Assembly: GCA_041476485.1 (NCBI GenBank)
Contig: JBGOTO010000001.1
Location: 770 to 64,769 of the forward strand
Direction of reading: 5' to 3'
Length of the DNA: 64,000 nt
From: Nitrospirota bacterium
Lineage (GTDB): Bacteria; Nitrospirota; UBA9217
Of this stretch, positions 16,681 to 58,844 are shown piece by piece (the first letter of the stretch is position 1; every line of letters begins with the position of its first letter). The notes under the pieces were generated by a model, which had not been told where the DNA came from, made no database searches, and saw only the letters and a program-made list of their open reading frames with translations. The position numbers were made by a program, and so were the translations under genes.

Positions 16681-16734
16681 CGATTTCGGATTGTAGATTA
16701 CCGATTGCGGATTGAAATGGCGAGGGGTAGTGAA

Positions 16735-17328
16735 TTATTCCTTCTGCTTCATGATCTCTTCGTTCCCGAGCACCTGATATAAGATTGACAGAGCCAGCCC
16801 AATAGCCGTTCCCAATATCACTCCCACAAGAACATCCGCAGGATAATGGACCCCAAGATAGAGGCGGGAAAAAGCAATGGCCGATGCGAGCAGTAGGGGA
16901 TAAAATCTCCATATGAGCTCGATATACCAACGGGTAAGGTAAAAGAGGGGCGCGGCAAAGGCAAAAGAGGATATTGCATGGCCTGAAGGCATGGAGAAGG
17001 ACTTCGGGCATGCGACGATGAGCCTCAGCCCCTCGAGAGCGCGGCATGGCCGCGGACGCGCTACGGCCTCTTTGACGATCTGTTCCATCCACCCCGCAAG
17101 GAACACCGAACAGCAGGCAAGCACGAGAGTCACCAGCGCTGCTGCTAAAAAGGTTTTTCCCCGGGTGTTCTTCTGTTTTGCCGACCGCAAGAGCATGGCG
17201 AGGAGAAAGGGAATGATCAGGAGATACCCGCGCTCCGAGAGGGCAGGCATGAGAATATCGAACAGCCCGTTTACGGTCCCGTGATTGATGAGAAGCAGGA
17301 GCTGCGTGTCCAGGGACTGTATGGTCAT
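16735..17328 (-). CDS. PAP2-family phosphatase (undecaprenyl-diphosphatase-like)
   Basis: Motifs KxxxxxxRP (KEAVARPRP), PSGH and SRxxxxxHxxxD (SRLYLGVHYPADV); 6 TM. Confidence 0.75.
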   Translation of the reverse strand: MTIQSLDTQLLLLINHGTVNGLFDILMPALSERGYLLIIPFLLAMLLRSAKQKNTRGKTFLAAALVTLVLACCSVFLAGWMEQIVKEAVARPRPCRALEGLRLIVACPKSFSMPSGHAISSFAFAAPLFYLTRWYIELIWRFYPLLLASAIAFSRLYLGVHYPADVLVGVILGTAIGLALSILYQVLGNEEIMKQKE

Positions 17329-17342
17329 GATTGCCGGCGCTG

Positions 17343-17681
17343 CTAGGCGCTCGTTGCGCCGCACTTGACTACGTGCGTGTCGCTTATTTCAATGAGCCCT
17401 TTTTCAACGATCGATGTAAGCTCCGCCAGGATGACGTTTATCTTTTCCTCCGTGTCCACGACTTCGATCTTGACCGGAAGGGTGGTGGAGAGTTCCAGTA
17501 TCTTCGTGGTGTGGAGCTTGCCTTTGATTCCGTAACCCGCAACTCCGCGGAACACGCTTGCCCCGGCGATTTTCCGCAGCGCCAGGACGTCCAGAACCGC
17601 TTCATACACGGGCTTGCCGTGGAGCTTCTCGGTCTCGTCTACATATATGGTAAGTTTCTTTGCCGGTCCGGGTTTGACCAT
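17343..17681 (-). CDS. DUF190 (PII-like) protein, usual partner of CrcB
   Basis: 112 aa, immediately downstream of crcB on the same strand. Confidence 0.7.
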   Translation of the reverse strand: MVKPGPAKKLTIYVDETEKLHGKPVYEAVLDVLALRKIAGASVFRGVAGYGIKGKLHTTKILELSTTLPVKIEVVDTEEKINVILAELTSIVEKGLIEISDTHVVKCGATSA

Positions 17682-17725
17682 GGTGGATTCCTTTCATAAC
17701 GCGTGCAAGATTGAAAGCCCACGCG

Positions 17726-18097
17726 TTAAATACTCTTCGCTATGACCTCGCCGAGCTTCAGCGCAATGAAGCCGACCAGGACACTGAACACGACGTTCAA
17801 TCCAGCGATCAGTAACTCGCCGTCTTTCAGGAGCGTACCGGTTTCGTATTCGAACGTGGAGAACGTGGTGTAGGCGCCAAGAAATCCGACCACGAGGAGC
17901 AGCCTCCACTGAGGGTTTATCATAAAGCGCTCTGCGAAGAGCGTCATGAGCAGACCGATGAGGAAGCTGCCGCTCACGTTAATGATAAACGTGCCGAGAG
18001 GAAAGCTCCGGCCCCACCGTTCTCCGATCCAGACCGCCAGAATGTAGCGGGCGATTGCGCCAATGAAGCCGCCGACGCCGATAATCAAATAATTCAT
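17726..18097 (-). CDS. crcB: fluoride ion channel CrcB/FluC
   Basis: MNYLIIGVGGFIGAIARY ... GFLGAYTTFSTFEYE; 4 TM, 123 aa. The track ORF 17726..18997 is an artefactual upstream extension. Confidence 0.85.
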   Translation of the reverse strand: MNYLIIGVGGFIGAIARYILAVWIGERWGRSFPLGTFIINVSGSFLIGLLMTLFAERFMINPQWRLLLVVGFLGAYTTFSTFEYETGTLLKDGELLIAGLNVVFSVLVGFIALKLGEVIAKSI

Positions 18098-18283
18098 TGT
18101 GCGAAACCTCGGTAGTAATTTAGCAGATATTGTTCTCGATGACAATAGAATACTGGCATCGGCCGGTATTTCAATGCGTATGATTTCAATCATAGAAATT
18201 TCTGCGAAAGAGGAGTAAAAAAGTGTATAATAAGGGCAGTGGAAATCAGAGAGCCCTGAAAAAAACAAAAAGGAGAATACACC

Positions 18284-18508
18284 ATGAAAGAAAAAGTAAT
18301 CGAGGCCCTCAAAAAAATCAGGCCGATGCTCCAGCGAGACGGCGGCGATATTGAACTCGTGAGCGTGGAAGAGAACGGTGTCGTTAAGGTGCGGCTGAAA
18401 GGCGCGTGCGGCTCCTGCCCCATGTCCACGATGACGCTCAAGATGGGCGTTGAGAAAACGCTGAAGCAGGAAGTCCCGGGTGTCACGGAAGTGGTCCAGG
18501 TAGCGTAA
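18284..18508 (+). CDS. NifU-like (Nfu-type) Fe-S cluster scaffold domain protein
   Basis: 74 aa; [14 protein letters not shown]...GACGSCPMS motif. Confidence 0.8.
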
Positions 18509-18577
18509 CCGGTTCATCCTTTTTTGAAATCCTTCTCTTAATTCGATCCTGTCATCACAACGGAATGAGGGTGGCCT

Positions 18578-18994
18578 ATGGACAGGCTTGTGTCGCGCTG
18601 CATTACGGCTGCGCTGGTCTATTTCGCGCTCGGCGCCGGGCTCGGCGTGGTGATGGTCTTCTGGCCCGAGTGGCCGGCGGTAGTGCGGACTGTCCACACG
18701 CACATCAACCTGTCGGGTTGGCTGACGATGACGGTGTATGCCGCGGGGTACGGAGTGTTGCCGCGCCTCGCGGGAAAGCCGCTCTACAGCCTGCGGCTGG
18801 GAAGCGTTCAATTCTGGCTGGCAAACGCCTCGCTGGTTGCCGTGTCGCTGTTCTGGATCCTCGCGTCCTTTCCGGAACCGGGAACGCTGACGTATGCGTT
18901 GCTTTATTCCGGTGTTGCGATATCCGCCGTGCTGCTGGCCGCGAGTGCGGATTTGTTCGTTTTCAATATGGTCATGACGCTGAAACGAAGGTAG
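18578..18994 (+). CDS. hypothetical 4-TM membrane protein with conserved His cluster (HTHINLSGW)
   Basis: 138-aa hydrophobic ORF with RBS GGGTGG; no family I can name. Confidence 0.45.
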   Translation: MDRLVSRCITAALVYFALGAGLGVVMVFWPEWPAVVRTVHTHINLSGWLTMTVYAAGYGVLPRLAGKPLYSLRLGSVQFWLANASLVAVSLFWILASFPEPGTLTYALLYSGVAISAVLLAASADLFVFNMVMTLKRR

Positions 18995-19056
18995 CATGTT
19001 CTGTTTCCCCCCGTGCGTTCGCGCTCTCTTATCAGCTTACTTCTTGTTAATTCCCG

Positions 19057-19086
19057 CTTGACACATGCGCTCTATTTCTGTTATAA
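19057..19086 (+). promoter_or_regulatory. candidate sigma-70 promoter of the rnf operon
   Basis: TTGACA (19057..19062), 17/18-nt spacer, TATAAA. Confidence 0.35.
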
Positions 19087-19170
19087 ACACCACGGCCCCG
19101 CAGCCTGAAGAAGTTACCGATTTATAAGAAATCATAATGATACTATTAGCTATTGTTCGGGTGATACAGA

Positions 19171-20505: not shown

Positions 20506-20571
20506 TTCAGAGTTCAATGTTCGAAGTTCGGAACAGACAGTAAAATATTTTGGCCGAATGAGGTCTCTATA

Positions 20572-22813: not shown

Positions 22814-22898
22814 AATTTCGGATTTCGGATTGTAGATTTCGGATTTTTTTTATTCCGCACTCCGCATTCCGCACTCCGCATTGCTGTAATCCGGAGGA

Positions 22899-23489: not shown

Positions 23490-23498
23490 AAATGTAAC

Positions 23499-23645
23499 TA
23501 CTCAGGTCAGTTGCTTCGCTTTGCGCAAGGCGCGCCGGATAATTAAGGGAATTTCGAAGTCGATCACAAGCCCCGCCTTGCTTGATGTCCGTGCATCGGT
23601 CGCCGCGCGCTTCATTGCGCCCGCGCTCCGCAGCAGACCTGAGTA
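23499..23645. repeat. MITE-like ~147-bp repeat, copy 2 (between rnfA and rnfB)
   Basis: Begins 10 nt after the rnfA stop; same TIRs and core as copy 1. Confidence 0.85.
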
Positions 23646-23729
23646 GTTATGTAAAAATGATAAATTCAAAGTGAAAAATTTACAATAAAGTGGTAGTATA
23701 CTTCTGCTTTAATTTTTTTGTGAAGGTGC

Positions 23730-24902: not shown

Positions 24903-24914
24903 TTAGCCGCGAAT

Positions 24915-27228: not shown

Positions 27229-27238
27229 TACTACCTTG

Positions 27239-28057
27239 ATGATTTATCTACGGATAACGGCGCTTGCCCTTGCCCTGCTCTGCTTCGGAAGTAGTCTTGC
27301 CCGTTCAGCTTTTGCCGACGAAAAAGAGATCTACGTGGCGATCGACAGTTTCACCTGGAGGGAGTTCGGAGACGACGGGTCCCGTTTATTGAAAGAATTA
27401 GGCCCCATTGTAGGCATCGGCTTCGCCTATTGGAGTGAGAATGAACATCATGTTACGTTGAGACCGACTGCGGAAATTTTCGTCGGCACCGTGAATTATG
27501 ATGGACATGCCTGCGATAGTTTCGGGAACTGCCAACCTGCAAAAACCCAAGTGGATTATTTCGGCTTCAAACTCGAAGGCGATCTCGGCCGCCGATTCAG
27601 ACCTTATGAGGGCCTCTATCTTGAACCTTTCGGCGGCCTCGGTTATCGCGCGTGGCTCCGGAATATACGCAACGGCACCGCCGCAGACGGCAGCCCTACC
27701 GCGGGATATATGGAAGATTGGAAAACATTCTACGCACGTTTGGGGCTGAGAGGCGGCAGGGAATTCTCGGAAGCTTCCCGATTTTTTGCCGAAGCGGGGA
27801 TGAAACTTCCCCTGTATAACGAGAACACCGCGTACCTGAGCAAGGCAGGTCTGGGGTCCGACGTCACGTTTAATCCCGGGAAAATGGTTTCTTATTTCGC
27901 TGAAGCGGGAGTGAAGATCAACAGGTTCAAGTGGAGCTTGTTTTACGACGGTCTGAGGTTCTCCAAGTCCAATACGGTGCAGAGCGGAATCTATCTTTAC
28001 TGGCAGCCCAAATCCACGATGGATATTTACGGCCTCAAGCTCGGCTATACGTTCTAA
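27239..28057 (+). CDS. outer-membrane beta-barrel protein (hypothetical)
   Basis: Signal peptide MIYLRITALALALLCFGSSLARSAFA, alternating amphipathic strands, C-terminal ...LGYTF (terminal aromatic). Confidence 0.6.
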   Translation: MIYLRITALALALLCFGSSLARSAFADEKEIYVAIDSFTWREFGDDGSRLLKELGPIVGIGFAYWSENEHHVTLRPTAEIFVGTVNYDGHACDSFGNCQPAKTQVDYFGFKLEGDLGRRFRPYEGLYLEPFGGLGYRAWLRNIRNGTAADGSPTAGYMEDWKTFYARLGLRGGREFSEASRFFAEAGMKLPLYNENTAYLSKAGLGSDVTFNPGKMVSYFAEAGVKINRFKWSLFYDGLRFSKSNTVQSGIYLYWQPKSTMDIYGLKLGYTF

Positions 28058-29433
28058 TCCGGTTCGTTCAGCTTCGCGAAGGCCTTCAGCACCACCTCGG
28101 AAAGCGCGGGATGGATATGGATCCCCCTGGCAACGGACCAGAGGTCCCCGTCTGCCGCCATGACATTCACTACCTCCTGGATCAGGACCGATGCCTGGGG
28201 GCCGATGATGTGGTATCCCAGTATCTTCCCGCTTTTGCGGTGCACGACGGCCTTGGTAAACCCCTCGGTCTCCATCATCGCCTCGCCGCGCGCCACGTCC
28301 GTGTACCTTGCCTTGCCCGTAAGCACTTCATGCTTGCCCATGAGCTTCACTGCCTGCTCCTCCGTCAGGCCCACGGACGCTATCTCGGGATAGGAGAAGA
28401 CGGCATGCGGAACTGCGAGGTAATTCATTTTTGATTTTTTCCCGTGGACGGCATTGTGCCAGATGATCTCGGCCTCGTGATTGGCGGTGTGCCGGAACAT
28501 CTTTTTGCCGACGGCGTCGCCGAAGGCCCAGATGTTCTTCTTCCCGGTCTCCAGGTAATCGTCAACCACGATGTACCCTTTTTCGTCCGTCTTGACGCCC
28601 GTATTTTTGACCATCAGGACATCGGCATTTGACTTTCTGCCCGCGGCGATAAGGACGTGCCGCGCCGTGACCTCCCTCTGTTTGCCGCTGTCCAGTTCTT
28701 TTGCCGTGACCGTCGTGACCTTTCCGGTTTGGCGGACTTCAATCGCTTCCGTATTCGTATACACCGTCATGCGGCGGGAAAGGGTGGTCTTGAGCAATTC
28801 CGAGACTTCCGGCTCTTCATCGGGCACGAGCTGCTTGTTGCGCTGAATGATCGTGACCTTCGCGCCCATGGCCTCGAAGAAATGAGCGAACTCGCACGCG
28901 ACATATCCTCCGCCGATGATGACCATGCTCTCGGGTTTCTCGGTGAGCCGGAGGACGCTCTCGTTCGTGAGGTATTCGATACTTTCAATTCCTTTAAGGG
29001 GAGGGATGAGGGGCCGGGCGCCGGTGACGAGAAAAATGGTCTTGCCCTTGATCGTATTGCTGTTTACCTCGAGTGTGTAATCCCCGGTGAAATGCGCCTC
29101 GCCGAAATAAAAATCCAACTCCTCGGTTTTCTCCAATGCTTCCTTGATGCGGTCATGGCCCTGCTTGACGTGCTCCCGCATCCGCTCCATGATCGCGCCG
29201 AAGTCTATGCTCTCGATCTTGGCTGAAATGCCGAGTTTCTTTGTTTCCCGTATTTCGACGATTCTATCCGCCGGATAGACGAGGATCTTCGTCGGGATTC
29301 AACCCATGTTGAGGCAGGTGCCGCCCAAAGGCCCCTTGTCCACGAGGGCCACGGTCATGTTGTGCGACAGCGCGTCTTCGATGAGGTTCGCGCCGGCGCC
29401 GGAGCCGATGATGACGACGTCATATTCTTTCAT
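28054..29433 (-). CDS. class-I pyridine nucleotide-disulfide oxidoreductase (Lpd/glutathione-reductase family) with in-frame TGA at the second active-site Cys position: candidate selenoprotein
   Basis: One continuous minus-strand frame from ATG 29433 to the stop at 28054, interrupted only by TGA at 29301..29299. Translation is MKEYDVVIIGSGAGANLIEDALSHNMTVALVDKGPLGGTCLNMG-[TGA]-IPTKILVYPADRIVEIRETKKLGI..., against the canonical GGTCLNVGCIPTK. Homology (CIPTK-like, NAD GxGxxG IIGGGYVACEF, C-terminal HIHPALSEV) continues on both sides. A hairpin lies 5-45 nt downstream (29256..29294). Confidence 0.7.
29256..29294 (-). promoter_or_regulatory. SECIS-like stem-loop immediately 3' of the in-frame UGA
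   Basis: mRNA after UGA is AUCC[CGACGA]AGAUCCUCG[UCUAUCC]GGC[GGAUAGA]A[UCGUCG]: a 6-bp lower stem, an internal loop, and a 7-bp upper stem with apical GGC, starting 5 nt after UGA. Confidence 0.45.
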
Positions 29434-29613
29434 GGATGATGTCCTTTCCTGAAACGTGCGCCCCCTTTGCCGAAGGACGGACAGGGGAGGATTTTTATTT
29501 GATTGTAGCAGGTTTACGGGAAGAGTCAATTAAACCGATTCTTCGTCTTGACTTATGGAAAAAATAACGCTATAAAACCGTAAGATTAGTAGCAAAGAAC
29601 CGGAGCCGACGCA

Positions 29614-30915
29614 TTGGACGATCAGCTAACGAAATACACACAAAAGCTCCTCCGCGACCGGACCGCGGTTGCGGAAAGCCTCCGCTTCTACCGGCTCGAC
29701 GACGTTTTGACGTCAAACAAACGGGACGAATGGCTTCCGCTCTTCACCGAGGTTTTCAACGGGCTGGACATCACCGCGATACTCTTTGCAAAACCGACGC
29801 TGCCTTTCGCTGACCTGCTTGTGGAACGGACCGATACGAACATTGATCGGCTTGTTCCGAAGGACAGCGAGACCAAAGGGTTCCTGCACGATATCCCCTT
29901 CATACGGGAGTGTGAATGGGCCGGGAGGCCGAAGCACGAGCTCGCAGGCATGATCGTCCGGTGTCTGAAAGAGCGGAAGGCGGCGATTATCCAGGGACTC
30001 GGCATGGTCGCGACGGGCGGCGTGACGGTGGAACAGGCGTACATCGGCTTTTCCACCCTGTTCCACACGACCTTCGTCAAATATCTTCTCGACCTGCTGG
30101 TAGAGGGGTTCAGGCTGCCGGGAGAAAAAGATGCTTTTGCGGCGTTTCGTAAGGATTGGTTGAAGACGCCGGACTTAGGCAGCCTTACCTTCACTCCGGG
30201 ACCGCTTGAAGGCAATGCGGAGTGCGGAATGCGCCCTGCACTCGCGCGAGCACTCGTAAACGCTGGGTGCAGGCGGAATGCGGAATGCGTGAATCGTAGT
30301 CAGGGAACAGACGCAATCTATCGTGAAGTCTGCAGGGTCGGACGCTATACCGTCGAGAAGGGATACGTAGACTCCTTTTTCGGGAACATCAGTTATTTCG
30401 ACGGAAAGACCATCTACATCAGCCAGACTACTTCATCGCTCGACGAGCTTGAAGGCCATATCGACCCTGTACCGCTCGACGGCTCATCCACTGCCGGGCT
30501 TTCGGCCTCATCGGAATTGCCTGCTCACCGGGGGATATACCTGTCTTCGGACTATCATGCCGTCCTTCACGGTCACCCCAAGTTCAGCGTGGTCATGTCC
30601 ATGTACTGCGTGGAGGAAGGCTGCACGATTCCCGACTGCAACCGGTTTTGCGATCGCAAACGTTCCGTGTGCGGCGTGCCGGTCGTGGCCGGAGAGACGG
30701 GCGCCGGCGGGCTGGCAACATCCGTTCCTCTTGCCATCAACAAGACCGGCGTCTGCATCGCCTACGGGCACGGTATTTTTTCTGCAGGGAAGAAAGATTT
30801 TCGGGATGCGTTCATGAACATGGCGGAGGCGGAAGACAAGTGCAGAGACGGGTATTTTGAACTGCTGGAAGGCAGGAAGGTAGAAGGTCACGAAGTTAAG
30901 AAGTTAGGAGAGTAA
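29614..30915 (+). CDS. two-domain protein whose C-terminal half is class II aldolase/adducin-like; the heptamer repeat is embedded in-frame mid-ORF
   Basis: TTG start. The C-terminal half has GNISYFDG, HAVLHGHP and AYGHGIFSAG (class II aldolase Zn/His motifs). Residues encoded by 30214..30292 (NAECGMRPALARALVNAGCRRNAECVNRS) come from the GCGGAAT repeat element that is intergenic at five other loci. Confidence 0.6.
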   Translation: MDDQLTKYTQKLLRDRTAVAESLRFYRLDDVLTSNKRDEWLPLFTEVFNGLDITAILFAKPTLPFADLLVERTDTNIDRLVPKDSETKGFLHDIPFIRECEWAGRPKHELAGMIVRCLKERKAAIIQGLGMVATGGVTVEQAYIGFSTLFHTTFVKYLLDLLVEGFRLPGEKDAFAAFRKDWLKTPDLGSLTFTPGPLEGNAECGMRPALARALVNAGCRRNAECVNRSQGTDAIYREVCRVGRYTVEKGYVDSFFGNISYFDGKTIYISQTTSSLDELEGHIDPVPLDGSSTAGLSASSELPAHRGIYLSSDYHAVLHGHPKFSVVMSMYCVEEGCTIPDCNRFCDRKRSVCGVPVVAGETGAGGLATSVPLAINKTGVCIAYGHGIFSAGKKDFRDAFMNMAEAEDKCRDGYFELLEGRKVEGHEVKKLGE

Positions 30916-38412: not shown

Positions 38413-38441
38413 CCTGCCCGCTTCGGCGGGCGGTTTTGTTT
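38413..38441 (+). terminator. rho-independent terminator after trxA
   Basis: Hairpin GCCCGC-TTCG-GCGGGC followed by TTTTGTTTT. Confidence 0.6.
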
Positions 38442-38512
38442 TCCCCTGTCGTTTTGTTGTGCCCTGTGTCGTTTTGTGGTACTCTGTATTGAAGCGCAAA
38501 GGAGATTTTTTG

Positions 38513-39090: not shown

Positions 39091-39166
39091 GCGGGCGTAG
39101 CTCAGTTGGTAGAGTACAAGCTTCCCAAGCTTGGGGTCGCGGGTTCGAACCCCGTCGCCCGCTCCA
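39091..39166 (+). tRNA. tRNA-Gly (anticodon CCC), CCA-encoded
   Basis: Manual cloverleaf: acceptor GCGGGCG/CGCCCGC, D-arm GCTC-AGTTGGTA-GAGT, anticodon stem CAAGC/GCTTG with loop TTCCCAA, T-arm GCGGG-TTCGAAC-CCCGT, 3' CCA. Confidence 0.85.
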
Positions 39167-39927: not shown

Positions 39928-40449
39928 ATGGGGAATAGAATCTATTTCATCACCGGCGGGGCACGTTCGGGAAAGTCCGCTTTTGCCGAGAAGCTTGCGG
40001 GCGAGCTCCAGGGTAAACGGGCCTACCTTGCAACGGCGCAGGCCCTCGATGCGGAGATGGTCGCACGCATCGAATTGCACCGGAAAAGGCGCGGAGGCGC
40101 ATGGGACACTTACGAGGAACCGCTGGCCATCGCCGAGCTGATGCGGAAACTCTCCGGCCGGTATGAAGTCCTGCTTCTTGACTGTCTTACTCTTTGGCTC
40201 AGCAACGTCATGGCCAGGACCGAGAAGAGCGACGAAATAGCCGGAAAACTCGACGAACTGACCACGGCGCTGAAGGATTTCAATGGGTCGTCTCTTGTGG
40301 TCACGAACGAAGTGGGGCTCGGCATCGTCCCGGACAATCCGCTTGCACGCCGTTTTAGGGATTTAGCCGGCATGATGAACCAGAAAGTGGCGCGAGTAGC
40401 GGATGAAGTGTATTTTACGGCTTCGGGGATACCGATGAGGATAAAATAG
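39928..40449 (+). CDS. cobU: adenosylcobinamide kinase / adenosylcobinamide-phosphate guanylyltransferase
   Basis: IYFITGGARSGKS P-loop, ~175 aa; the neighbours are cobT/cobS/cobC. Confidence 0.85.
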   Translation: MGNRIYFITGGARSGKSAFAEKLAGELQGKRAYLATAQALDAEMVARIELHRKRRGGAWDTYEEPLAIAELMRKLSGRYEVLLLDCLTLWLSNVMARTEKSDEIAGKLDELTTALKDFNGSSLVVTNEVGLGIVPDNPLARRFRDLAGMMNQKVARVADEVYFTASGIPMRIK

Positions 40450-40478
40450 GGTCAGGGGGCAGGGGTCAAGGGGCATGG
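40449..40478. repeat. G-rich left inverted repeat flanking the four-helix-bundle gene
   Basis: GGGTCAGGGGGCAGGGGTCAAGGGGCATGG abuts the start codon. Its reverse-complement partner lies at 40838..40863 (GTGGGTCAGGGGGCATGGGTCAAGGG when reverse-complemented). Confidence 0.7.
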
Positions 40479-40837
40479 AAAAAGATGAAAGGGGTTTCAG
40501 ACAGCTGAATGCCTGGCAAAAGGCCTATGAACTGACCTTGGAAATTTATCAGCTTGCCAAAGCATTTCCAAAGAGCGAAGCATACGGGCTAACCTCACAA
40601 CTGCAGCGTGCCGTTGTGTTCGTACCGGCCAATATTGCAGAAGGTTACGAGCGTAACCACAGAAAGGAATACGTTCAATTTCTGTTCATTGCTAAAGGAT
40701 CGTTAGGTGAGGTTGAAACATACCTTCTGCTTGCAAAAGATTTTGGATACTTATCACAAGACGAATATGCAAGTATAGACGAAAAAAGGAAAACAACATC
40801 AAGGCTCTTAAAGGGTCTTATCAAGTCGTTAACTTGA
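40475..40837 (+). CDS. four-helix-bundle protein (23S rRNA intervening-sequence protein family)
   Basis: 120 aa; AWQKAYELTLEIYQL...LTSQLQRAVVFVPANIAEGYER...KGSLGEVETYLLLAKDFGY is the signature of this family. It is inserted between cobU and cobT. Confidence 0.8.
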   Translation: MEKDERGFRQLNAWQKAYELTLEIYQLAKAFPKSEAYGLTSQLQRAVVFVPANIAEGYERNHRKEYVQFLFIAKGSLGEVETYLLLAKDFGYLSQDEYASIDEKRKTTSRLLKGLIKSLT

Positions 40838-40863
40838 CCCTTGACCCATGCCCCCTGACCCAC
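40838..40863. repeat. G-rich right inverted repeat (C-rich on + strand) flanking the four-helix-bundle gene
   Basis: CCCTTGACCCATGCCCCCTGACCCAC begins 1 nt after the stop codon. Confidence 0.7.
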
Positions 40864-40873: not shown

Positions 40874-41968
40874 TTGCAGAAAAAGGAGAAAACAGTGAAC
40901 AAACTCAAGGAAATTCTCGATACTATTCAGCCCGTCGACCAGTCTCGCTCGAACACGGTCCAGGCGCAGCTTGACAACCTAACGAAGCCGCAGGGGAGCC
41001 TCGGCCGCCTGGAGGAGCTTGCGAAAAAATATTGCCTGATCACGGGCAAGGACAAGCCGACGATCAGGAACAAGATCATTTTTACCTTTGCCGGCGACCA
41101 CGGCGTCACGGAAGAGGGCGTGAGCGCATTTCCCAGGGAGGTGACGCCGCAGATGGTGTTCAATTTCCTGCGCGGCGGCGCGGGAGTGAACGTGCTCGCG
41201 AAGCACACGGGCGCCAGGGTGATCGTGGTGGACATGGGCGTTGATTACGAATTCGAGCCAACGGACGGGCTCGAGATCAGAAAAATAGCCCGCGGCACGA
41301 AGAACATGACCAAGGGTCCGGCCATGACCCGCGAAGAAGCGGAGCGCGCGGTTCTCGCCGGGATCGAACTGGTGGAAAAATATAAGAACGGGCTCGACCT
41401 CCTCGGGACCGGGGACATGGGTATCGGGAACACGACGCCGTCCTCGGCGATCGTATCAGTCATCACGGGAACGGACCCGGAAAAAGTGACTGGACGAGGC
41501 ACCGGCATCGACGAGCAGTCATTAAAGAACAAGGTGGCGATCATTAAAAAAGCGATTGCGGTGAACAAGCCTGATCCCAAGGATGCCCTCGACGTGCTTG
41601 CCAAGGTGGGCGGGTATGAGATCGCCGGGATCGCCGGACTCGTGCTCGGGGCGGCGCTCTACAGGATTCCTGTGGTGATCGATGGGTTCATCTCGACCGC
41701 GGGCGCGCTCATCGCTGCGGAATTGAATCCCCTGTGCAAGGGCTACATGATCGCAGCGCACCAGTCGGTCGAGATCGGCCACCGGAAGATGCTCGAACAT
41801 ATGGAGCAGATACCGCTCCTGGACCTCAATCTCCGGCTGGGAGAGGGCACGGGCGCGGCGCTCGGCATGTCGCTCGTCGAGGCGGGCGTGAAGATCCTCG
41901 GCGAGATGGCGACGTTTGCAGCCGCGGGAGTCGCGGAAGGCAACGAGGCTGAGAAAGTGAGAAATTAA
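40874..41968 (+). CDS. cobT: nicotinate-nucleotide--dimethylbenzimidazole phosphoribosyltransferase
   Basis: CobT signature GDMGIGNTT...GLVLGAAL...[10 protein letters not shown]. Confidence 0.9.
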
Positions 41969-42049
41969 GAAGGTGGAAAGGTAGGAGGGCAAGAAGGTAG
42001 GAAAATGGGAAGGTAAGAAGGTAGGCAAAGAGAGGAAAAGACGGCAGGC

Positions 42050-42820
42050 ATGATTCGAAATTTTATCAACGCGCTCCAGTTTCTGACGATCGTGACCGTA
42101 AGCAAAAAGCACAGGATCGAGGAAGGAGACCTGGCGAAATCCATGGTCTATTTCCCGGTGATCGGCTTTCTGATCGGGCTGCTGCTGGTCTATGCGGACA
42201 AGGCGTTTGCGCTGATCGTCCTGCCCCAGACCGTTGCCACGTTCCTGCTCGTCATCATCTCCGTTTTGATAACGCGCGCCCTGCACATCGACGGCCTGGC
42301 AGACACGCTCGACGGATTGATGGGCGGCCATGACCATTCTTCCCGGCTTGCCATCATGAAAGACAGCAGGCTCGGGACCGCGGGAGCGCTCGGCATCGTC
42401 TTTGTCCTGTTCATGAAATACCTTTGCCTCAATACCCTCGCTGAAAGCGACAGGAACGCCGCGCTGTTGACCGCGCCGATGCTCGCCCGCTGGTCGCAGA
42501 CGCTCATGGCGTTCAAGGCGGACTACGGCCGTGACGAGGGAATGGGCAGGGCGTTTGTCGGGCATCTCCGGGTCGGCGGTTTTGCTGCCGCCACCGTTGT
42601 CGCCGTGGCGCTGTTGGGATTCGTGGTCCTGCGGCTGGACCCGCGCTCCGTGGCCCTTTTCTTCGGCCTGCTCCTCGGCATCGCGCTGCTCACGCTCATC
42701 GGACGCTGGCGCCTTGTCCGCAAACTCGGCGGGGTGACCGGCGACGCGATCGGCGCCGTGAGCGAACTGAACGAGGTCCTGGTGCTCCTCATTTTTGTTA
42801 TTTTCTCGGATGGAAGCTAG
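42050..42820 (+). CDS. cobS: adenosylcobinamide-GDP ribazoletransferase (cobalamin synthase)
   Basis: CobS-family 6-TM protein, with HIDGLADTLDG and GVTGDAIGA motifs. Confidence 0.9.
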   Translation: MIRNFINALQFLTIVTVSKKHRIEEGDLAKSMVYFPVIGFLIGLLLVYADKAFALIVLPQTVATFLLVIISVLITRALHIDGLADTLDGLMGGHDHSSRLAIMKDSRLGTAGALGIVFVLFMKYLCLNTLAESDRNAALLTAPMLARWSQTLMAFKADYGRDEGMGRAFVGHLRVGGFAAATVVAVALLGFVVLRLDPRSVALFFGLLLGIALLTLIGRWRLVRKLGGVTGDAIGAVSELNEVLVLLIFVIFSDGS

Positions 42821-46429: not shown

Positions 46430-46430
46430 T

Positions 46431-46688: not shown

Positions 46689-46695
46689 ATAGGCA

Positions 46696-46800
46696 CATAA
46701 AGCTGGGGGAGCCTATGGCTGAGAGTCCTGTTCACGAGGGACGACCCTTGGAACCTGATCCGGGTAGTGCCGGCGTAGGGAAGGCGAGTATGTACCAGGA
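46696..46800 (+). promoter_or_regulatory. TPP (THI-box) riboswitch
   Basis: CTGGGGGAGCC...GCTGAGAG...ACCCTTGGAACCTGATCCGGGTAGTGCCGGCGTAGGGAAG matches the THI-element core (CUGAGA, ACCUGAUCYGGNUAAUACCNGCGNAGGGA). Confidence 0.85.
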
Positions 46801-47089: not shown

Positions 47090-47118
47090 ATTAACGGCAA
47101 CACGGTTGCCTTGGTCCA
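47062..47118 (+). repeat. 60-nt double-hairpin element, copy 1 (upstream of thiG)
   Basis: atggagcgaGCCGACcgtGTCGGCgtaaattaacGGCAACacgGTTGCCttggtcca: two perfect 6-bp stems with 3-nt loops plus the palindromic TGGTCCA. Near-identical copy at 55087..55146. Confidence 0.7.
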
Positions 47119-48539: not shown

Positions 48540-49837
48540 CCCAGATCCTTGAAGCGCGAAAAGGAAATATTACTCCCGAGATGGAAGCGGTTGCGCGTTC
48601 CGAAAGCACGAGCGTCGAGCATGTTATCGCAGGTGTGGCTTCGGGCACGATCGTGATCACGCGCAACAGCCGGCATATGTCCATCACGCCGCTCGGCATC
48701 GGCAAGGGACTCAGGACCAAGATCAACGCCAACATCGGGACCTCGAAGGACCGGATGTCCATCGACGATGAGATCGAAAAGCTCAAGGCTGCTGTGTCGG
48801 CCGGCGCGGACGCGGTCATGGACCTCTCGACCGGCGGCCCGATTGTCGGGATACGCAGGGAAATCCTGAAGCATTCCACGGTTGCCATCGGGACGGTGCC
48901 GATTTATCAGGCAGCGGTCGAGACGGTGGAACAGGGGAAATCAATCGTCCAGATGGACCCCGATCTGCTGTTCCGCGTGATCGAGCAGCAGGCGGAAGAG
49001 GGCGTGGACTTCGTGACCGTGCACTGCGGCGTGACCATCGCGAGCGTGGAGCGGCTGAAGAAGCAGGGCAGGATCATGGACGTGGTGAGCCGGGGCGGGG
49101 CGTTCCACCTCGAATGGATAATCTGTAACGAGGCTGAGAACCCGCTCTACGCGCAGTACGACCGCCTGATCGAGATCTGCAAGAAATTCGATGTGACGCT
49201 CTCGCTCGGCGACGGCATGCGGCCGGGGTGCCTCGCCGATGCCACGGACCGGGCCCAGATCGAGGAGTTGATCATTCTGGGCGAGCTGCGCGACGTGGCG
49301 CACGAGGCCGGCGTGCAGGTGATGATCGAGGGGCCGGGCCACGTGCCGATCAACCAGGTCGAGATGAATATCAAAATTCAAAAGGAGCTGTGTAAAGGCG
49401 CTCCGTTCTACGTGCTCGGACCGCTCGTGACCGACGTTGCGCCGGGATACGATCACATCACTTCGGCCATCGGCGGCGCGATAGCGGGCGCGGCAGGGGC
49501 GGACTTTCTCTGCTATGTCACCCCGTCGGAACATTTGCGCCTGCCGGACCTTGAAGACGTGCGCGAGGGTGTCATCGCCTCCCGCATCGCGGCGCATGCC
49601 GCGGACATCGCGAAGGGCGTCCCGGGCGCCATGGACTGGGACAAGGAAATGGCGCGGCGGCGCAAGGCGCTGGACTGGAAGGGCCAGATCGAGCTTTCGA
49701 TCAATCCCGAACGGGCGCGCAAGCTGCGCGAGTCGAGCATGCCCAAGGAATCCGACGTATGCTCCATGTGCGGGGAGTTCTGCTCGATGAAAGGCGTGAG
49801 CCAATACCTGAAGAAAGAAGACAGGAGCGGGAAATAA
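48536..49837 (+). CDS. thiC: phosphomethylpyrimidine synthase (short, anaerobe-type)
   Basis: 433 aa; C-terminal CSMCGEFCSM radical-SAM-like Fe-S motif; overlaps the thiE stop. Confidence 0.9.
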   Translation: MTQILEARKGNITPEMEAVARSESTSVEHVIAGVASGTIVITRNSRHMSITPLGIGKGLRTKINANIGTSKDRMSIDDEIEKLKAAVSAGADAVMDLSTGGPIVGIRREILKHSTVAIGTVPIYQAAVETVEQGKSIVQMDPDLLFRVIEQQAEEGVDFVTVHCGVTIASVERLKKQGRIMDVVSRGGAFHLEWIICNEAENPLYAQYDRLIEICKKFDVTLSLGDGMRPGCLADATDRAQIEELIILGELRDVAHEAGVQVMIEGPGHVPINQVEMNIKIQKELCKGAPFYVLGPLVTDVAPGYDHITSAIGGAIAGAAGADFLCYVTPSEHLRLPDLEDVREGVIASRIAAHAADIAKGVPGAMDWDKEMARRRKALDWKGQIELSINPERARKLRESSMPKESDVCSMCGEFCSMKGVSQYLKKEDRSGK

Positions 49838-50712
49838 TGCGGAATGTGGAATGCGGAGTGCGGAATAAGTTAAGAAACCTCTATTTGTTCAGTATTCTTT
49901 TCTGCTTGCCTTTTCTTGCTTATGCGGGAGAGACGGCTGTTCAGCCGGAGGTAATCCTCTCCCCGAACAAGGTGGGGCCGGGGGACATCCTGCTCATCAC
50001 CGTAAATAATTCCGGCGGGCCGGTTGAAGGAATATTTGACGGCAAAAAACTCTATTTTAATCCAATAAAAAATTATTATGAAGCCGTTGTCGGCATCGAC
50101 CTGTTGACTAAGCCCGGAACGTATGATCTGGAAATCAATTGCAATAACGTCCCAATTCACCGCGTTGTCCGGGTCTCGAAAAAAGCCTATCCGCTCCAGC
50201 GGCTTACGCTTCCGAAGGACATGGTTGAACTCTCTCCCGAGAACGAGGCGCGCGTCGAGCGCGAGCAGAAGAAGACTGCCACTCTCTGGCCGAACGAGAC
50301 CAGCCGGACCTGGTCGGGCAATTTCATCAATCCGCGGGAAGGCAAGATCTCCTCGCTCTTCGGGGTCAGAAGGATCATCAACAATATTCCGAAGAGTCCT
50401 CACAGCGGCGTCGATGTTTCCGCCGACGAGGGAGATGAAGTGATCGCCCCGAACAACGGCGTTGCCGCGTTGGTAGACGACCAGTTCTATTCAGGGAATA
50501 TCGTCGTGCTCGACCACGGCCAGGGCATTTATACCATGTTCTTTCACCTGTCCAAAATAGTCGTCACGCCGGGCCAGATCGTCAAGAAGGGCGACGTAAT
50601 CGGCCTCGTGGGCTCCACGGGCCGCGCAAAAGGCGCGCACCTGCACTGGGGCGTGCGTATGCAGGGCGCTCGCGTCGATCCGCTGGAACTGATTCACTTG
50701 AAGCTGGAGTAA
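49837..50712 (+). CDS. secreted M23-family metallopeptidase
   Basis: HSGVDVSA (HxxxD), HLHWGV (HxH), signal peptide LYLFSILFCLPFLAYA. ATG 49837 overlaps the thiC stop (TAATG). The first 14 codons (MRNVECGVRNKLRN) are encoded by the heptamer repeat. Confidence 0.75.
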   Translation: MRNVECGVRNKLRNLYLFSILFCLPFLAYAGETAVQPEVILSPNKVGPGDILLITVNNSGGPVEGIFDGKKLYFNPIKNYYEAVVGIDLLTKPGTYDLEINCNNVPIHRVVRVSKKAYPLQRLTLPKDMVELSPENEARVEREQKKTATLWPNETSRTWSGNFINPREGKISSLFGVRRIINNIPKSPHSGVDVSADEGDEVIAPNNGVAALVDDQFYSGNIVVLDHGQGIYTMFFHLSKIVVTPGQIVKKGDVIGLVGSTGRAKGAHLHWGVRMQGARVDPLELIHLKLE

Positions 50713-50776
50713 AACGGCAGGGTCAAGGGGCAAGCAGCAAGGGTATGGGTCCAGGGGCAAGGGGCAGGGGTCAGGC

Positions 50777-51598
50777 GTGAGACGAAAGAGATATTTTCAT
50801 TCCGCAATCCGCATTCCGCAATCCGCAATTGGAGTAAAAGTCCTATCCATCGCCGGTTCCGACCCTTCTTCCGGCGCCGGGATCCAGGCCGATCTCAAGA
50901 CCTTCCAGGCGCTCGGCGTATTCGGCATGGCTATACCCGCTGCGCTTACAACGCAGAACAGCAAGGGCGTTTCCGGCGTGTATCCTGTTCCGCCAAAAAC
51001 CCTGTCACAACAGATTGACACGCTTCTTTCGGACATCAAGCCTGACGGGATCAAGACCGGCATGCTGCTCACGAAGCAAGCCGTGGATGCCGTGGCAAAG
51101 GCTGTCCGAAAGTATAAGGTCAGAAACCTCGTCATCGATCCCGTGATCCGGTCCAGTTCCGGCAGGCCGCTTCTCCGGCCCGATGCGCTGAGATCACTCA
51201 AACAAAATCTTTTGCCGCTGGCGCTTGTCGTCACTCCTAACATACCCGAAGCGGAAATGCTGACCGGCATGTCGATCAAGTCAGACGGAGACATGGATTT
51301 TGCCGCCGGTCATATCCTCGATCTGGGACCAACCTATGTGCTCATCAAGGGCGGTCATTGGAAAGGCCCTGCAACAGATACACTCTACGGAGGCAAAACC
51401 GTGGTCAGCCTTTCCACAACCAGGAAGAAAGGCGAGTTTCACGGCACGGGGTGCGTGCTTTCCTCCGCAATCGCGGTGTTCATAGCCCAGGGATTTCCTG
51501 TGGAAAAGGCTGTGGAAAAGGCAAAACAGTTTGTGGATAGGATGTTGAAAACAGCGATGCGAATGGGGAAGGGCAAGACGAAGTACTTTCAATTCTAA
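50777..51598 (+). CDS. thiD: hydroxymethylpyrimidine/phosphomethylpyrimidine kinase
   Basis: VLSIAGSDPSSGAGIQADLKTFQALGVFG canonical ThiD N-terminus. The start is uncertain: GTG 50777 reads through heptamer repeat 50798..50830 as HSAIRIPQSAI. Confidence 0.8.
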   Translation: MRRKRYFHSAIRIPQSAIGVKVLSIAGSDPSSGAGIQADLKTFQALGVFGMAIPAALTTQNSKGVSGVYPVPPKTLSQQIDTLLSDIKPDGIKTGMLLTKQAVDAVAKAVRKYKVRNLVIDPVIRSSSGRPLLRPDALRSLKQNLLPLALVVTPNIPEAEMLTGMSIKSDGDMDFAAGHILDLGPTYVLIKGGHWKGPATDTLYGGKTVVSLSTTRKKGEFHGTGCVLSSAIAVFIAQGFPVEKAVEKAKQFVDRMLKTAMRMGKGKTKYFQF

Positions 51599-51674
51599 CC
51601 GTTTTTTTACCCAGAGATCGCTGAGAAAATGAAGTTGATTCGCTCTGCATCCTGGTTCAGTCACTTGGGAGGTT

Positions 51675-52942: not shown

Positions 52943-53011
52943 CGATCTCCCGTTATCCGTGATACAACTATTCTGATTCATCGACTGTTCAACTCGAGGA
53001 GGTGTACGGTT

Positions 53012-54244: not shown

Positions 54245-54261
54245 TTTATTGACACTCCCGT

Positions 54262-55122: not shown

Positions 55123-55146
55123 CGGCAACACGGTTGCCTTGGTCCA
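55087..55146 (+). repeat. 60-nt double-hairpin element, copy 2 (upstream of purD)
   Basis: atggagcgaGCCGACcgtGTCGGCgtaaaaaaataacGGCAACacgGTTGCCttggtcca; ends 13 nt before the purD ATG. Confidence 0.7.
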
Positions 55147-55159
55147 AAAGGGGTCACAA

Positions 55160-56437: not shown

Positions 56438-56463
56438 CGAAAATTCCAATTGCAAAAAGCACA

Positions 56464-57237
56464 ATGCAAAAAACAGCACGTCCGACAATCAGGAATATCG
56501 CCTCGTTATTGAACGAGACGCTGCGGACCAAAAGAATCAAGGACGCGTCGGTGAACGGCCTGCAGGCGCGGTCGCGCAAACGAGGAGAAATCCAAACAGT
56601 CGGTTTTGCCGTCGATGCCTGCATTTCTACTTTTGAAAAAGCAAAAAAGCTCGAGGTCGAGCTCCTCGTCGTTCATCACGGCTTCATGTGGAGGCCCCAA
56701 AAGGACAGGGACCTGGCGGACCGGAGGGCGGCGTACCTGAAGGCAGGCAACATGGCGCTCTATGCCGCGCATCTGCCGCTTGATCTGCACGAGGAATACG
56801 GGAATAACATCCGGTTGTCGCGTGTCCTGGATTTGCAGGAGCTGCGGAAATTCGGCGAGTATCACGGCGTCAAGATCGGCTATGCCGGTACCTTCAAAAA
56901 CGCAACGAGTCCGGACGCTGTTGCGGCGAGGCTGAAGAAAGAACTGCATTCAGCGTGCCGCGTTCTGCGGTTCGGGAAGAAACGCATCAGGTCGATCGGC
57001 ATCATCTCCGGCGGAGGCGGGAGTATCCTGCGGGAAGCCGTGCAGGAGCGCCTCGACTGTTTCGTCGTCGGGGAGATCGATCTGGCAGTCTACAATGCGG
57101 CGAAGGACTATAACATGAACCTTATTGTCGCCGGGCACTATGCCACGGAAACCGTCGGCGTAAAGGCATTGATGCCGCTTGTCAGGGACACGTTCGGCGT
57201 AAGAGCGGTCTTCATTGCCGATCCGAAGAATCTGTAG
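56464..57237 (+). CDS. Nif3-family dinuclear metal centre protein (YqfO/YbgI-like)
   Basis: VVHHG ... GHYATE motifs of NIF3. Confidence 0.75.
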   Translation: MQKTARPTIRNIASLLNETLRTKRIKDASVNGLQARSRKRGEIQTVGFAVDACISTFEKAKKLEVELLVVHHGFMWRPQKDRDLADRRAAYLKAGNMALYAAHLPLDLHEEYGNNIRLSRVLDLQELRKFGEYHGVKIGYAGTFKNATSPDAVAARLKKELHSACRVLRFGKKRIRSIGIISGGGGSILREAVQERLDCFVVGEIDLAVYNAAKDYNMNLIVAGHYATETVGVKALMPLVRDTFGVRAVFIADPKNL

Positions 57238-57264
57238 CAGGCCGGACCAGGCAACAAACGATTA

Positions 57265-57918
57265 TTGAAGAAGGGAGACATGATGGGTAAACCGATAGTG
57301 GGAATATTGATGGGGAGCGATACCGACCTGCCGATAATGCAGGAGGCGGCGGCCATGCTGCATGAGTTCGGCATAGACTACGAGATGACGATCGCCTCGG
57401 CGCACCGCACGCCGAAGAAAGTGCTCGAATACAGCCAGAGCGCGGAAAAGCGCGGGATCAAGATAATCATTGCGGGCGCGGGCTGGGCTGCGCATCTGGC
57501 GGGCGTGGTGGCGTCGCAGACCACGCTGCCGGTGATAGGCGTGCCGATCGATTCGTCGCCGCTCAAGGGGATGGACGCGCTCCTTGCCACGGTCCAGATG
57601 CCGGGCGGCGTTCCGGTGGCGACGATGGCGCTCGGCAAGGCCGGCGCCAAGAACGCGGGAGTGTTCGCGGCCCAGATCATCGCCACGAGCGACGTAAAGA
57701 TCTCGAACCGCCTGAAGGTCTTCAAGGTGGAAATGGAGCGCGAAGTGGAGGAGAAGGCCAAGCGGCTTTTGGCCATTACCGCCGCTGCGCCCCGGGAACA
57801 GGCAGCCACGAGCGAGGCGGCGCACGGCGAGGCATCCATGGCCAAGAAAAAACCGCGGCGCAGGCGCTGGAAAAAGAAGCCCGGCGGTCCCGCGCCCGCG
57901 GAGGGCCAGGTAGTGTGA
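57265..57918 (+). CDS. purE: N5-carboxyaminoimidazole ribonucleotide mutase with ~50-aa basic C-terminal extension
   Basis: GSDTDLP, AGAGWAAHLAGVVAS PurE core (~165 aa), then ...AKKKPRRRRWKKKPGGPAPAEGQVV. Confidence 0.8.
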   Translation: MKKGDMMGKPIVGILMGSDTDLPIMQEAAAMLHEFGIDYEMTIASAHRTPKKVLEYSQSAEKRGIKIIIAGAGWAAHLAGVVASQTTLPVIGVPIDSSPLKGMDALLATVQMPGGVPVATMALGKAGAKNAGVFAAQIIATSDVKISNRLKVFKVEMEREVEEKAKRLLAITAAAPREQAATSEAAHGEASMAKKKPRRRRWKKKPGGPAPAEGQVV

Positions 57919-58766
57919 AGACCGAGCTCGAATGCCTGCCCTGCTTTTTCGGGCAGATACGCCGAACGCTGCAGTACGCGGGAGTGAACGGCGAGAGGGG
58001 CCGCGCCATAGAACGCAGGGCCGCGTTGATCATAGAACGCTCTTCTCTTGATGAGGTCCCGGCGCGGACCACTACGCTCATTCACCGGCTTTTGCGAGAG
58101 GAAACCGGCGTCGATCCGTATCGGCAGGTGAAGGAGACCTACAACCGCCTTGCGCTCGAGCTGCTTCCCGGGCTGAGACGTATGGCAACTGAAGCGCCTG
58201 ACCGTCTTGAAGCGAGCGTCCGGATCGCGATCGCGGGGAACATCATCGACTTCGGTATTTATGAAAGCATCGATCTGGACCGCTCCCTCGCGGACGCGTT
58301 CCGCCTGCCGCTTCCGACAGAGGGTTACCGTCGTTTCGCCAGGGCAATCGGCAATGCCCGCCGCGTTCTTTACCTCTGCGACAACGCAGGCGAGATCGTG
58401 TTCGACCGGGTGCTGCTCGAAACCCTGCGCGCAATGGGCAAGGACGTGATCGCCGCGGTCAAGGGCGCCCCCGCGATCAACGACGCCACGCTTGCAGACG
58501 CCGCAGCTGCGGGCCTTCAGGAATGCGCAACGGTCATCGACAATGGGAACGACGGCATCGGCACGCTTTTGGAAGCGTGCTCTCCGCGGTTTATGGACGC
58601 ATACCGCTCCGTTGACCTGATCATCAGCAAAGGGCAGGCCAACTACGAAACACTCGCGCAAGCCGGAGACGCGCGGACATTCTTTTTGTTCAAGGTAAAG
58701 TGCCGCGTTGTCGCGGCGTTCCTGGATCGAGAGAACGGGGACATTGTGCTGACGGGGAACGGGTGA
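57915..58766 (+). CDS. DUF89 (ARMT1-like damage-control phosphatase) family protein
   Basis: N-terminal CLPC, DNAGE and KGQANYE motifs. Confidence 0.7.
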   Translation: MKTELECLPCFFGQIRRTLQYAGVNGERGRAIERRAALIIERSSLDEVPARTTTLIHRLLREETGVDPYRQVKETYNRLALELLPGLRRMATEAPDRLEASVRIAIAGNIIDFGIYESIDLDRSLADAFRLPLPTEGYRRFARAIGNARRVLYLCDNAGEIVFDRVLLETLRAMGKDVIAAVKGAPAINDATLADAAAAGLQECATVIDNGNDGIGTLLEACSPRFMDAYRSVDLIISKGQANYETLAQAGDARTFFLFKVKCRVVAAFLDRENGDIVLTGNG

Positions 58767-58844
58767 GAAAAAATGTGGAATGACGAATGCGGAATGTGGA
58801 ATGAAAAATCATGAAAGCACCGCGTCTCGAACTCCGAAAATGAC

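Follow-up and report, generated by a model that had tools for sequence, protein, structure and literature searches.

The stretch of 64,000 nucleotides analyzed here (called the window below) comes from a Nitrospirota bacterium (contig JBGOTO010000001.1 of assembly GCA_041476485.1) and carries short tandem arrays of the heptanucleotide GCGGAWT (where W is A or T) at six loci. With a probability that we would place near 0.55, these loci are copies of one polar heptanucleotide repeat element rather than independent simple repeats, and the element is probably neutral or selfish filler that has occasionally been exapted, not a regulator. The complete element is an imperfect palindrome, 5′-(GCGGAWT)3–5–loop–(AWTCCGC)3–5-3′, whose outer ends abut genes, and where an array stands alone, the other arm has decayed or is built from heptamers of another family. 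The arrays are polar with respect to genes, are present or absent according to lineage, persist at orthologous sites, and reside in frame within proteins. Homologs of the window proteins are labeled Nitrospirota in their source records.

Heptamer arrays in the window and the polarity of the element

An earlier note on this DNA, made from the sequence alone, had described dispersed heptamer simple-sequence elements of the GCGGAWT type at six loci, and that description survives testing. Head-to-tail 7 nt units, at least two per array, can be read at every one of them, and Tandem Repeats Finder lists all six with period 7 and 2.9–4.7 copies. A two-unit probe (GCGGAATGCGGAAT, with up to two mismatches) has 14 matches in the window (G + C content 57.6%) against 1.10 expected, and 0 of 100 shuffled sequences reached 14. 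The unit variants present are GCGGAAT, GCGGATT, GCGGAGT, GTGGAAT, and TCGGATT. The copies are dispersed and mostly intergenic; five of the six loci in these 64 kb lie at gene borders.

The weakest array (16683–16714, + strand; 69% matches) is a degenerate G-rich-strand array of the TCGGATT/GCGGATT type (TTTCGGA TTGTAGA TTACCGA TTGCGGA TTG) lying 3 nt past the TAA stop (16678–80) of a PCMT gene, between this gene and a convergent PAP2 gene (both by Pfam). Of the window's GCGGAWT-type loci, only that in the rnf operon is a two-armed element. Its left, G-rich-strand arm, about 4.5 units of TCGGATT (22815–22846, + strand), lies 2 nt past the rnfE stop (TAG, 22811–13) and leads into a run of eight T residues, two of which belong to the last TCGGATT unit; its right arm (22852–22882, − strand), C-rich on the + strand with four units of ATTCCGC/ACTCCGC, ends 16 nt ahead of the rnfA ATG, and the GGAGG ribosome-binding site lies between. 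The G-rich-strand array at 49836–49866 (+ strand; AATGCGG AATGTGG AATGCGG AGTGCGG AAT) overlaps the thiC stop (TAA, 49835–37, in the sequence TAATG), and that at 58772–58803 (+ strand; AATGTGG AATGACG AATGCGG AATGTGG AATG) lies 5 nt past the TGA stop (58764–66) of an ARMT1-like gene and ends 41 nt ahead of a Sua5/YrdC-like start (Pfam). The remaining two loci lie in coding sequence: an array at 50798–50830 (− strand), C-rich on the + strand with the sequence (ATTCCGC AATCCGC)×2, lies within thiD, and two direct arrays lie in the linker of an aldolase-like protein. A second heptamer family, GGGGCAG/GGGTCAA, which is absent from the earlier note, is found at 40449–40475, 40833–40861, and 50719–50775.

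The earlier statement that arrays lie just after stop codons holds for the G-rich-strand arrays at the four stops given above, and all six G-rich-strand arrays in the window, the second family included, begin 0–7 nt after the stop of a gene on the same strand. The C-rich arrays lie directly upstream of rnfA and thiD; the array at 50798 is the exception to the stop rule, since it abuts the thiD coding sequence and no stop. Of the two loci that had been read as reverse complements, the 50798 array is indeed so oriented, but at 22815–22883 only the right half is, the left TCGGATT half having the G-rich orientation.

The rnf and PCMT spacers were compared across relatives located through their RnfA homologs. 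The rnfE|rnfA spacers of L209 and L210 have conserved flanks and different repeat arrays within them. In L210, which is syntenic with the window, the PCMT and PAP2 stops are only 2 nt apart, so the window's PCMT|PAP2 spacer and its array are lineage-specific. In L209 (positions 1033–1134; RnfA 93% identical) inverted 9-mer arrays (CTGAAGAGT... / ACTCNNNNA...) stand in place of the heptamers, and the flanks on the stop side and the ribosome-binding-site side are the same as in the window.

A scan for three tandem copies of GCGGADT (D is A, G, or T) in one genome per species (596 Gb) found at least 120 loci, where chance alone would give about 7 (27 variants × 2 strands × 5.96e11 bases / 4^21). 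All counts from other genomes in this section are among the matches listed, which come mostly from Acidobacteriota, Verrucomicrobiota, Planctomycetota, Chloroflexota, Gemmatimonadota, and Nitrospirota. Polarity was examined in 142 arrays from these loci by symmetric tests of the distances to the ends and starts of open reading frames (ORFs) of at least 100 codons. In 32 of 54 cases an ORF on the G-rich strand stops no more than 7 nt from the array, as against 5 of 40 on the opposite side, where the distances are flat, and the stop is frequently part of a first unit that has degenerated (TAAtt|GCGGATT, TGAtt|, TAGgagt|). Genes that read away from the array start within 20 nt of the same boundary in 30 of 65 cases and of the other boundary in 7 of 51. 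Finally, a complementary partner array (at least 70% pairing, within 300 nt) lies downstream of 61 of 140 arrays (about 44%) and upstream of 2 of 142. This yields about 50 distinct two-armed elements of roughly 50–130 bp, all G-rich then C-rich, with arms of 21–28 nt that are 70–100% complementary and loops of 0–275 nt (median about 36). Because the outer ends of the element abut genes, its G-rich strand reads out of a stop and its C-rich strand into a start, whichever direction the gene takes; a symmetric two-armed element with such ends thus explains all three rules, and also why single arrays are tight against a gene on one side only.

The rival account that these data bear on most directly is slippage in situ with a preferred 7 nt step, no copying between loci, and a polarity imposed by selection against G-rich-strand starts upstream of genes. 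It is unlikely, but it is the rival that we take most seriously. When CGGAWT-type arrays are removed, period 7 still prevails among the tandem repeats of these loci, where it accounts for 107 arrays built from about 100 different units, period 6 for 6 arrays, and period 8 for 14, so that step size and not sequence would be what is favored. Arrays also stay at a constant site in distant orthologs while the unit alternates between AAT and ATT, some close relatives have one or two units where the window has four, and earlier literature, as cited by PMC4692102, ascribes the heptamer excess of bacteria to slippage. Yet slippage makes no complementary neighboring array, and 44% of arrays have one, always in one order; nor does it readily give complete two-armed elements inside conserved enzymes (below), one unit recurring in at least six phyla, or the identical irregular 33 nt arm that three copies in a single genome (L084) share around unrelated loops.

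Arrays within protein-coding sequences

Three routes from repeat to protein are documented in the window, namely a linker insert, an extended signal peptide, and a replaced gene start. All six frames of the GCGGAWT unit are free of stop codons; start codons are lacking on its C-rich strand, and every frame of its G-rich strand contains ATG, GTG, or TTG. Owing to these properties the elements can occupy protein linkers or take over gene starts. As a distinguishing property six-frame openness was rejected, since 50% of all heptamers share it, and it is permissive rather than diagnostic.

The linker insert lies in a 433 amino acid class II aldolase-like protein (29614–30915, + strand; Pfam and homolog search). 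The ORF is one conserved two-domain Nitrospirota protein, aligned over 97% of the query in hundreds of homologs, and in an alignment of 22 orthologs the linker between the domains is the sole internal region that varies in length. There the window has two direct in-frame arrays, AATGCGG AGTGCGG AATGCG (30214–30233, + strand) and GCGGAAT GCGGAAT GCG (30273–30294, + strand), around a 40 nt core (30234–30273, + strand; CCCTGCAC...GTGCAGG) with 7 bp terminal inverted repeats CCTGCAC...GTGCAGG. The core occurs once in the window and is missing from the nearest ortholog, L121 (88% amino acid identity), which has only AATGCGGAATGCG where the window has array, core, and array; the window carries a clean extra 63 nt within flanking DNA that is about 90% identical. 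In L122 the linker consists of two arrays around a 22 nt core, and in L123 of an uninterrupted five-unit array. Many other orthologs have in-frame GCGGAAT/GCGGATT arrays at the same site, which were recognized from the peptides NAEC, IADC, and LRIADCGLRI and agree at the DNA level. The earlier note's in-frame insert is therefore real, but relative to L121 it measures 21 codons and not the 26 it had been given.

In four further orthologs (P0078, P0086, P0095, and P0096) the in-frame linker holds a palindromic repeat of another type (CCCTCCC..GGGAGGG; GGGGTGAGGGGG; SPHPSPLPQGER-like peptides). The same widespread repeat (CCCTCCC..GGGAGGG; GGGGTGAGGGGG; translated as SPHPSPLPQGER-like sequence) occupies the thiC|M23 spacer of a close relative (L126:1787–1887), so sites of this sort collect several kinds of repeat. 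Synteny around the aldolase-like gene is lost in L124 and L125. In the window, a pyridine-nucleotide disulfide oxidoreductase gene (28054–29529, − strand) is split into two ORFs by a TGA at about 29296–29298 that aligns with the second cysteine of the redox motif (the window reads GGTCLNMG-U-IPTK, and L124 and L122 read GGTCLNLG-C-IPTK). L125 has a TGA at the same position. Judged from this alignment, the in-frame TGA probably encodes selenocysteine.

The array at 49836 codes for the N-terminus of an M23 peptidase (49837–50712, + strand; Pfam), as had been claimed: the public record of this 291 amino acid protein places its start at ATG 49837, within the array and within the TAATG of the thiC stop, and the array supplies this ATG and exactly 27 nt (9 extra codons, in frame) of the signal-peptide n-region. 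In one relative from the same 90%-identity cluster, the protein begins MKKIILT and has no array-coded residues, and the spacer contains other palindromic repeats with TAATGCGGAA retained. In the near-identical strain L127 the array at the peptidase start is identical and the upstream gene is different; when L127:1–100 is set against window positions 49790–49840, the breakpoint falls exactly at the left edge of the array.

Downstream of the peptidase, a second-family G-rich array (50719–50775, + strand; GGGTCAA/GGGGCAA/GGGGCAG) lies 6 nt past the M23 stop (TAA, 50710–12) and is kept in L126, L127, and L128. It is followed by thiD, which from GTG 50777 encodes 273 amino acids (50777–51598, + strand), and here too the claim that the array forms part of the N-terminus is upheld: ThiD residues 8–18 (HSAIRIPQSAI), counted from that GTG, are the translated 50798–50830 array. 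Most ThiD orthologs have 255 amino acids and start MIKVLSIAGS. The window gene and at least 18 orthologs lack this usual ATG, and have instead an upstream ATG or GTG followed by an open, translated C-rich array (HSAIRIPQSAIG, HSAFRIPHSALG, and others). Thus, as read from these gene sequences, the ThiD of a whole clade has lost its usual start and is predicted to be read through the array from an upstream one. The full layout of M23 stop, second-family G-rich array, GTG, four C-rich units, and thiD is kept in L128 (81% identity). The public ThiD record (P0121) has 223 amino acids from an internal methionine and is missing the conserved N-terminal VLSIAGSDPSSGAGIQ segment; it is truncated because the array replaced the normal start, which explains the annotation error.

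Arrays at the 5′ ends of two coding sequences, with a unit length that is not a multiple of three, recall contingency loci, where the M23 peptidase or ThiD would be turned on and off by frameshift as units are gained or lost (phase variation). We consider this the least credible of the alternatives. The arrays are short, with three to five imperfect units; in the two comparisons made, the array was identical in the near-identical L127, and four units were counted in the window as in L128; thiD has a housekeeping role; and since the G-rich array has a start codon in every frame, slippage within it would not silence the peptidase.

In-frame residence is not peculiar to the window. Among the matches listed from the scan, ten arrays or elements lie in frame within conserved enzymes (by Pfam). 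Whole two-armed elements are found within valyl-tRNA synthetase (ValRS), a class III aminotransferase, UvrA, homoserine dehydrogenase, and PurL, and single arrays within a MurD-like ligase, an aldehyde dehydrogenase, HypF, and a protein kinase; a nitrogenase-like oxidoreductase is also included.

RNA folding and a PF05635 gene within a heptamer hairpin

The rnf element had been described as a hairpin with the layout (TCGGATT)n–T run–(ATTCCGC)n. The layout is correct, but the hairpin is not stable (−20.4 kcal/mol, against −17.9 for shuffled sequences; z = −0.9), since TCGGATT and ATTCCGC belong to different sub-families and pair over only 4 bp per unit. The folds of single arrays are no more stable than those of their shuffles, and mostly less so (z from −0.3 to +1.95). 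None of the window's arrays is overlapped by a terminator-like or promoter-like site, and at Rfam gathering thresholds no family in a search of the whole window matches any array. Intrinsic termination, in which a GC-rich stem precedes a T run, was rejected for 22815–22882, where the T run sits in the loop. CsrA-type binding to GGA was likewise set aside, as the strand that adjoins start codons is the C-rich one, which lacks GGA.

Between cobU and cobT, a second-family G-rich array (40449–40475, + strand) overlaps the cobU stop (TAG, 40447–49) and runs into the ATG of a gene for a 120 amino acid PF05635 protein (40475–40837, + strand; Pfam E = 1e-37), the family of the 23S rRNA intervening sequence (IVS) protein, an Avd-like four-helix bundle. 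A complementary C-rich array (40833–40861, − strand) begins at the stop of this gene, so that its reading frame opens within the last G-rich unit and closes within the first C-rich one. The arrays are the 5′ and 3′ arms of a terminal stem of 23 bp, beyond the 20 bp taken as the minimum, which appears in both the minimum-energy and centroid folds (z = −6.7), and the gene occupies the loop.

Such an arrangement is common around this gene family, being present in about 60 of 70 metagenomic homologs. Among 70 metagenomic PF05635 homologs, which occupy at least 25 different flank contexts, G exceeds C upstream in 68 and C exceeds G downstream in 60, and the two flanks are complementary at 15 or more of 21 nt in 62 of the 70 as against 4 of 70 controls. 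That PF05635 genes generally lie beside GCGGAWT arrays was considered and rejected; tblastn gives one such gene among the at least 120 loci, and it is flanked by a different heptamer of its own. In a Bacteroidota homolog the flanking heptamer is GAGTTGC. The 23S rRNA IVS of Coxiella consists of a 28 bp RNase III stem with an S23p/PF05635 ORF in its loop, and the cassette resembles the IVSs of Coxiella and Leptospira (PMC4990558) in having such an ORF in the loop of a terminal-repeat stem of about 23–28 bp. It differs from them in lying in a cobalamin operon rather than in rRNA helix 25 or 45, and in that its stem arms are heptamer arrays.

Because it ties heptamer hairpins to a cargo gene, the cassette is the basis for a more far-reaching proposal: heptamer arrays would be the terminal inverted repeats of a single cross-phylum hairpin family with PF05635 as cargo, GCGGAWT, GGGAATC, and the tandem heptamers of cyanobacteria called STRR (short tandemly repeated repetitive sequences) would be its empty or decayed copies, and the protein would recognize heptamer nucleic acid and aid its spread or maintenance. 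We regard this as speculative and unlikely. If it were true, it would supply a function for PF05635 proteins and rRNA intervening sequences and would explain the long-noted heptamer excess in bacteria. The association of heptamer hairpins with PF05635 offers a lead, open to testing, both on heptamer over-representation in bacteria and on the role of the 23S IVS protein, and it is the aspect most worth pursuing.

The same cassette offers some comfort to the idea of a functional RNA, in which paired arrays would be sites between cistrons for RNase III processing or stabilization, and single arrays would act as stretches free of structure that influence Rho loading or translational re-initiation. 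Its stem is comparable to the RNase III stem of the Coxiella IVS (PMC4990558), many GCGGAWT pairs among the matches listed have 25–27 Watson–Crick pairs out of 28, the position at cistron borders is conserved, and the C-rich strand would face transcription entering a gene from either end, as a Rho loading site would need. On the other hand, the two-armed GCGGAWT element of the window pairs poorly and its single arrays do worse than shuffled sequence, as described above; the two arms of the rnf spacer, like those of the M23|thiD spacer, are drawn from different families and are unable to pair; terminator-like sites and Rfam matches are lacking at the window's arrays; and in the paired arms among the matches listed G-U outnumber A-C mismatches only 2:1 (42 against 21), with few events and no dependence on which strand is sense. 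An RNA function for the arrays in general is therefore doubtful, and we rate it below slippage.

The cobT|cobS spacer (41966–42050) is occupied by an imperfect, purine-rich repeat (AAGAAGGTAGG..., period 8/24), likewise absent from the earlier note, which starts at the cobT stop, the array itself spanning 41966–42030, and in L128 a stretch rich in AAGAAGGTAG that resembles it precedes the M23 gene.

Related repeats and the origin of the arrays

Tandem heptanucleotides were reportedly described as STRR in Calothrix and Anabaena by Mazel and colleagues in 1990, with several unit families per genome, dispersed and mostly intergenic. The window, with at least two or three unit families, would be similar in that respect, but the STRR units are said to be different and the host here is not a cyanobacterium. 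We know of no description of polarity or pairing for STRR. Rickettsia palindromic elements, which Ogata and colleagues are said to have found in 2000, reportedly have a conserved sequence of 100–150 bp, are inserted in frame and translated, and are confined to Rickettsia; the elements discussed here similarly lie as in-frame palindromes in conserved genes, but are 50–130 bp long, have heptamer arms, and occur in many phyla.

Literature searches with the GCGGAWT unit and with two-unit strings returned nothing relevant among the papers covered, but several related repeats have been reported. TAACTGA direct repeats (MacGregor 2015; PMC4679880), with 2–6 units a few nucleotides from start codons, are common to the distant phyla of Beggiatoaceae, cyanobacteria, and Bacteroidetes, and how they were transferred is not known. 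They share with GCGGAWT the heptamer arrays near start codons and the distribution of one unit among distant phyla; TAACTGA, however, has stops in all frames and is almost always direct (there is one inverted case), whereas GCGGAWT is open in six frames and often paired. Repetitive extragenic palindromic (REP) elements and the REP doublets known as REPINs (Bertels and Rainey 2011; PMC3116915), like miniature transposable elements with inverted repeats (MITEs), have two inverted arms, a short spacer, placement at gene ends, many copies per genome, and singlets that can be read as decayed halves. The size and inverted repeats of the two-armed copies described above fit a MITE, but their arms are tandem heptamers and not the single imperfect palindrome of a REP arm.

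The closest relatives are GGGAATC of Xanthomonas and GGGGAYT of Nostoc PCC 7120 (Rehm et al. 2015; PMC4692102), which occur as hundreds of dispersed intergenic arrays of about four units, with the G-rich strand up to 50 bp after a stop in the sense orientation or up to 50 bp upstream of an ORF in the antisense orientation; convergent inverted pairs are frequent, and some arrays overlap ORF ends. GCGGAWT arrays belong to this known kind of polar heptameric intergenic repeat. They have its unit length, its stop and start polarity, its frequent convergent pairs (22815–22882 in the window), and its GGAAT/GGATT core (CGGGAAT, compared with GCGGAAT here). They differ in having GG where those have GGG, in occurring in many phyla rather than one genus, and in the coding use documented here. 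The kind is thereby extended from single genera to Acidobacteriota, the Planctomycetota–Verrucomicrobiota–Chlamydiota (PVC) group, Chloroflexota, Gemmatimonadota, and Nitrospirota, with one common unit.

The Xanthomonas and Nostoc repeats were proposed to be regulatory repeats that form G-quadruplexes, and a similar proposal could be made here from the shared unit length, polarity rule, and similar core, and from the second family, which fits a quadruplex motif at 40449–40473 and 50741–50764. It is very improbable for GCGGAWT, which has only GG runs: a search for at least four tracts of three or more G residues with loops of 1–7 nt found none in the six arrays, whose placement nevertheless follows the same rules. 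The published rules of polarity for quadruplex-capable heptamers thus hold as well for a unit that forms no canonical quadruplex, and quadruplexes are not their general explanation.

If the six loci are indeed copies of one element, such elements would be mobile and would arrive by insertion or copying. They could later gain, lose, and homogenize units by slipped-strand events, lose the sequence between direct arrays by deletion, and suffer decay of an arm. They may persist because they are cheap to carry, the C-rich strand being harmless in a leader and single arrays having no stable structure. Several points weigh against this reading. No transposase or other mobilizing gene, including the IS200/IS605-like Y1 transposases associated with REP elements (RAYTs), was found among the 20 of about 58 window ORFs scanned with Pfam. 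The loops differ between copies, even among the three in L084, unlike the internal sequence of a MITE. No target-site duplication is evident at the junctions, whose reading is ambiguous as the arms are themselves repeats. Arrays stand at the same site in orthologs of only 70–80% amino acid identity (the aldolase linker and the thiD leader), and the number of units is equal in the window and L128; both fit old vertical inheritance better than recent transposition. Openness in six frames, being common to half of all heptamers, carries little weight. The gene positions at the at least 120 loci come from ORF heuristics and not from curated annotation, and the phylum spread rests on the matches listed (at least 120), a sample that may be biased. 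Finally, some elements may have a function, for example RNase III processing of those that are well paired, or protection from Rho.

At gathering thresholds, Rfam identifies in the whole window a thiamine pyrophosphate (TPP) riboswitch at 46695–46799 (65 bits), ahead of the thiamine cluster, and a tRNA gene at 39091–39163. A 15 nt palindrome, GGCAACACGGTTGCC (+ strand), occurs at 47096–47110 and 55124–55138, each time in a short gap between + strand ORFs, and an imperfect 20 nt tandem repeat, GTTTTGTTGTGCCCTCTGTC (2.3 copies), lies at 38433–38487 between an upstream GC-rich hairpin and a downstream AhpC/TSA-like gene.

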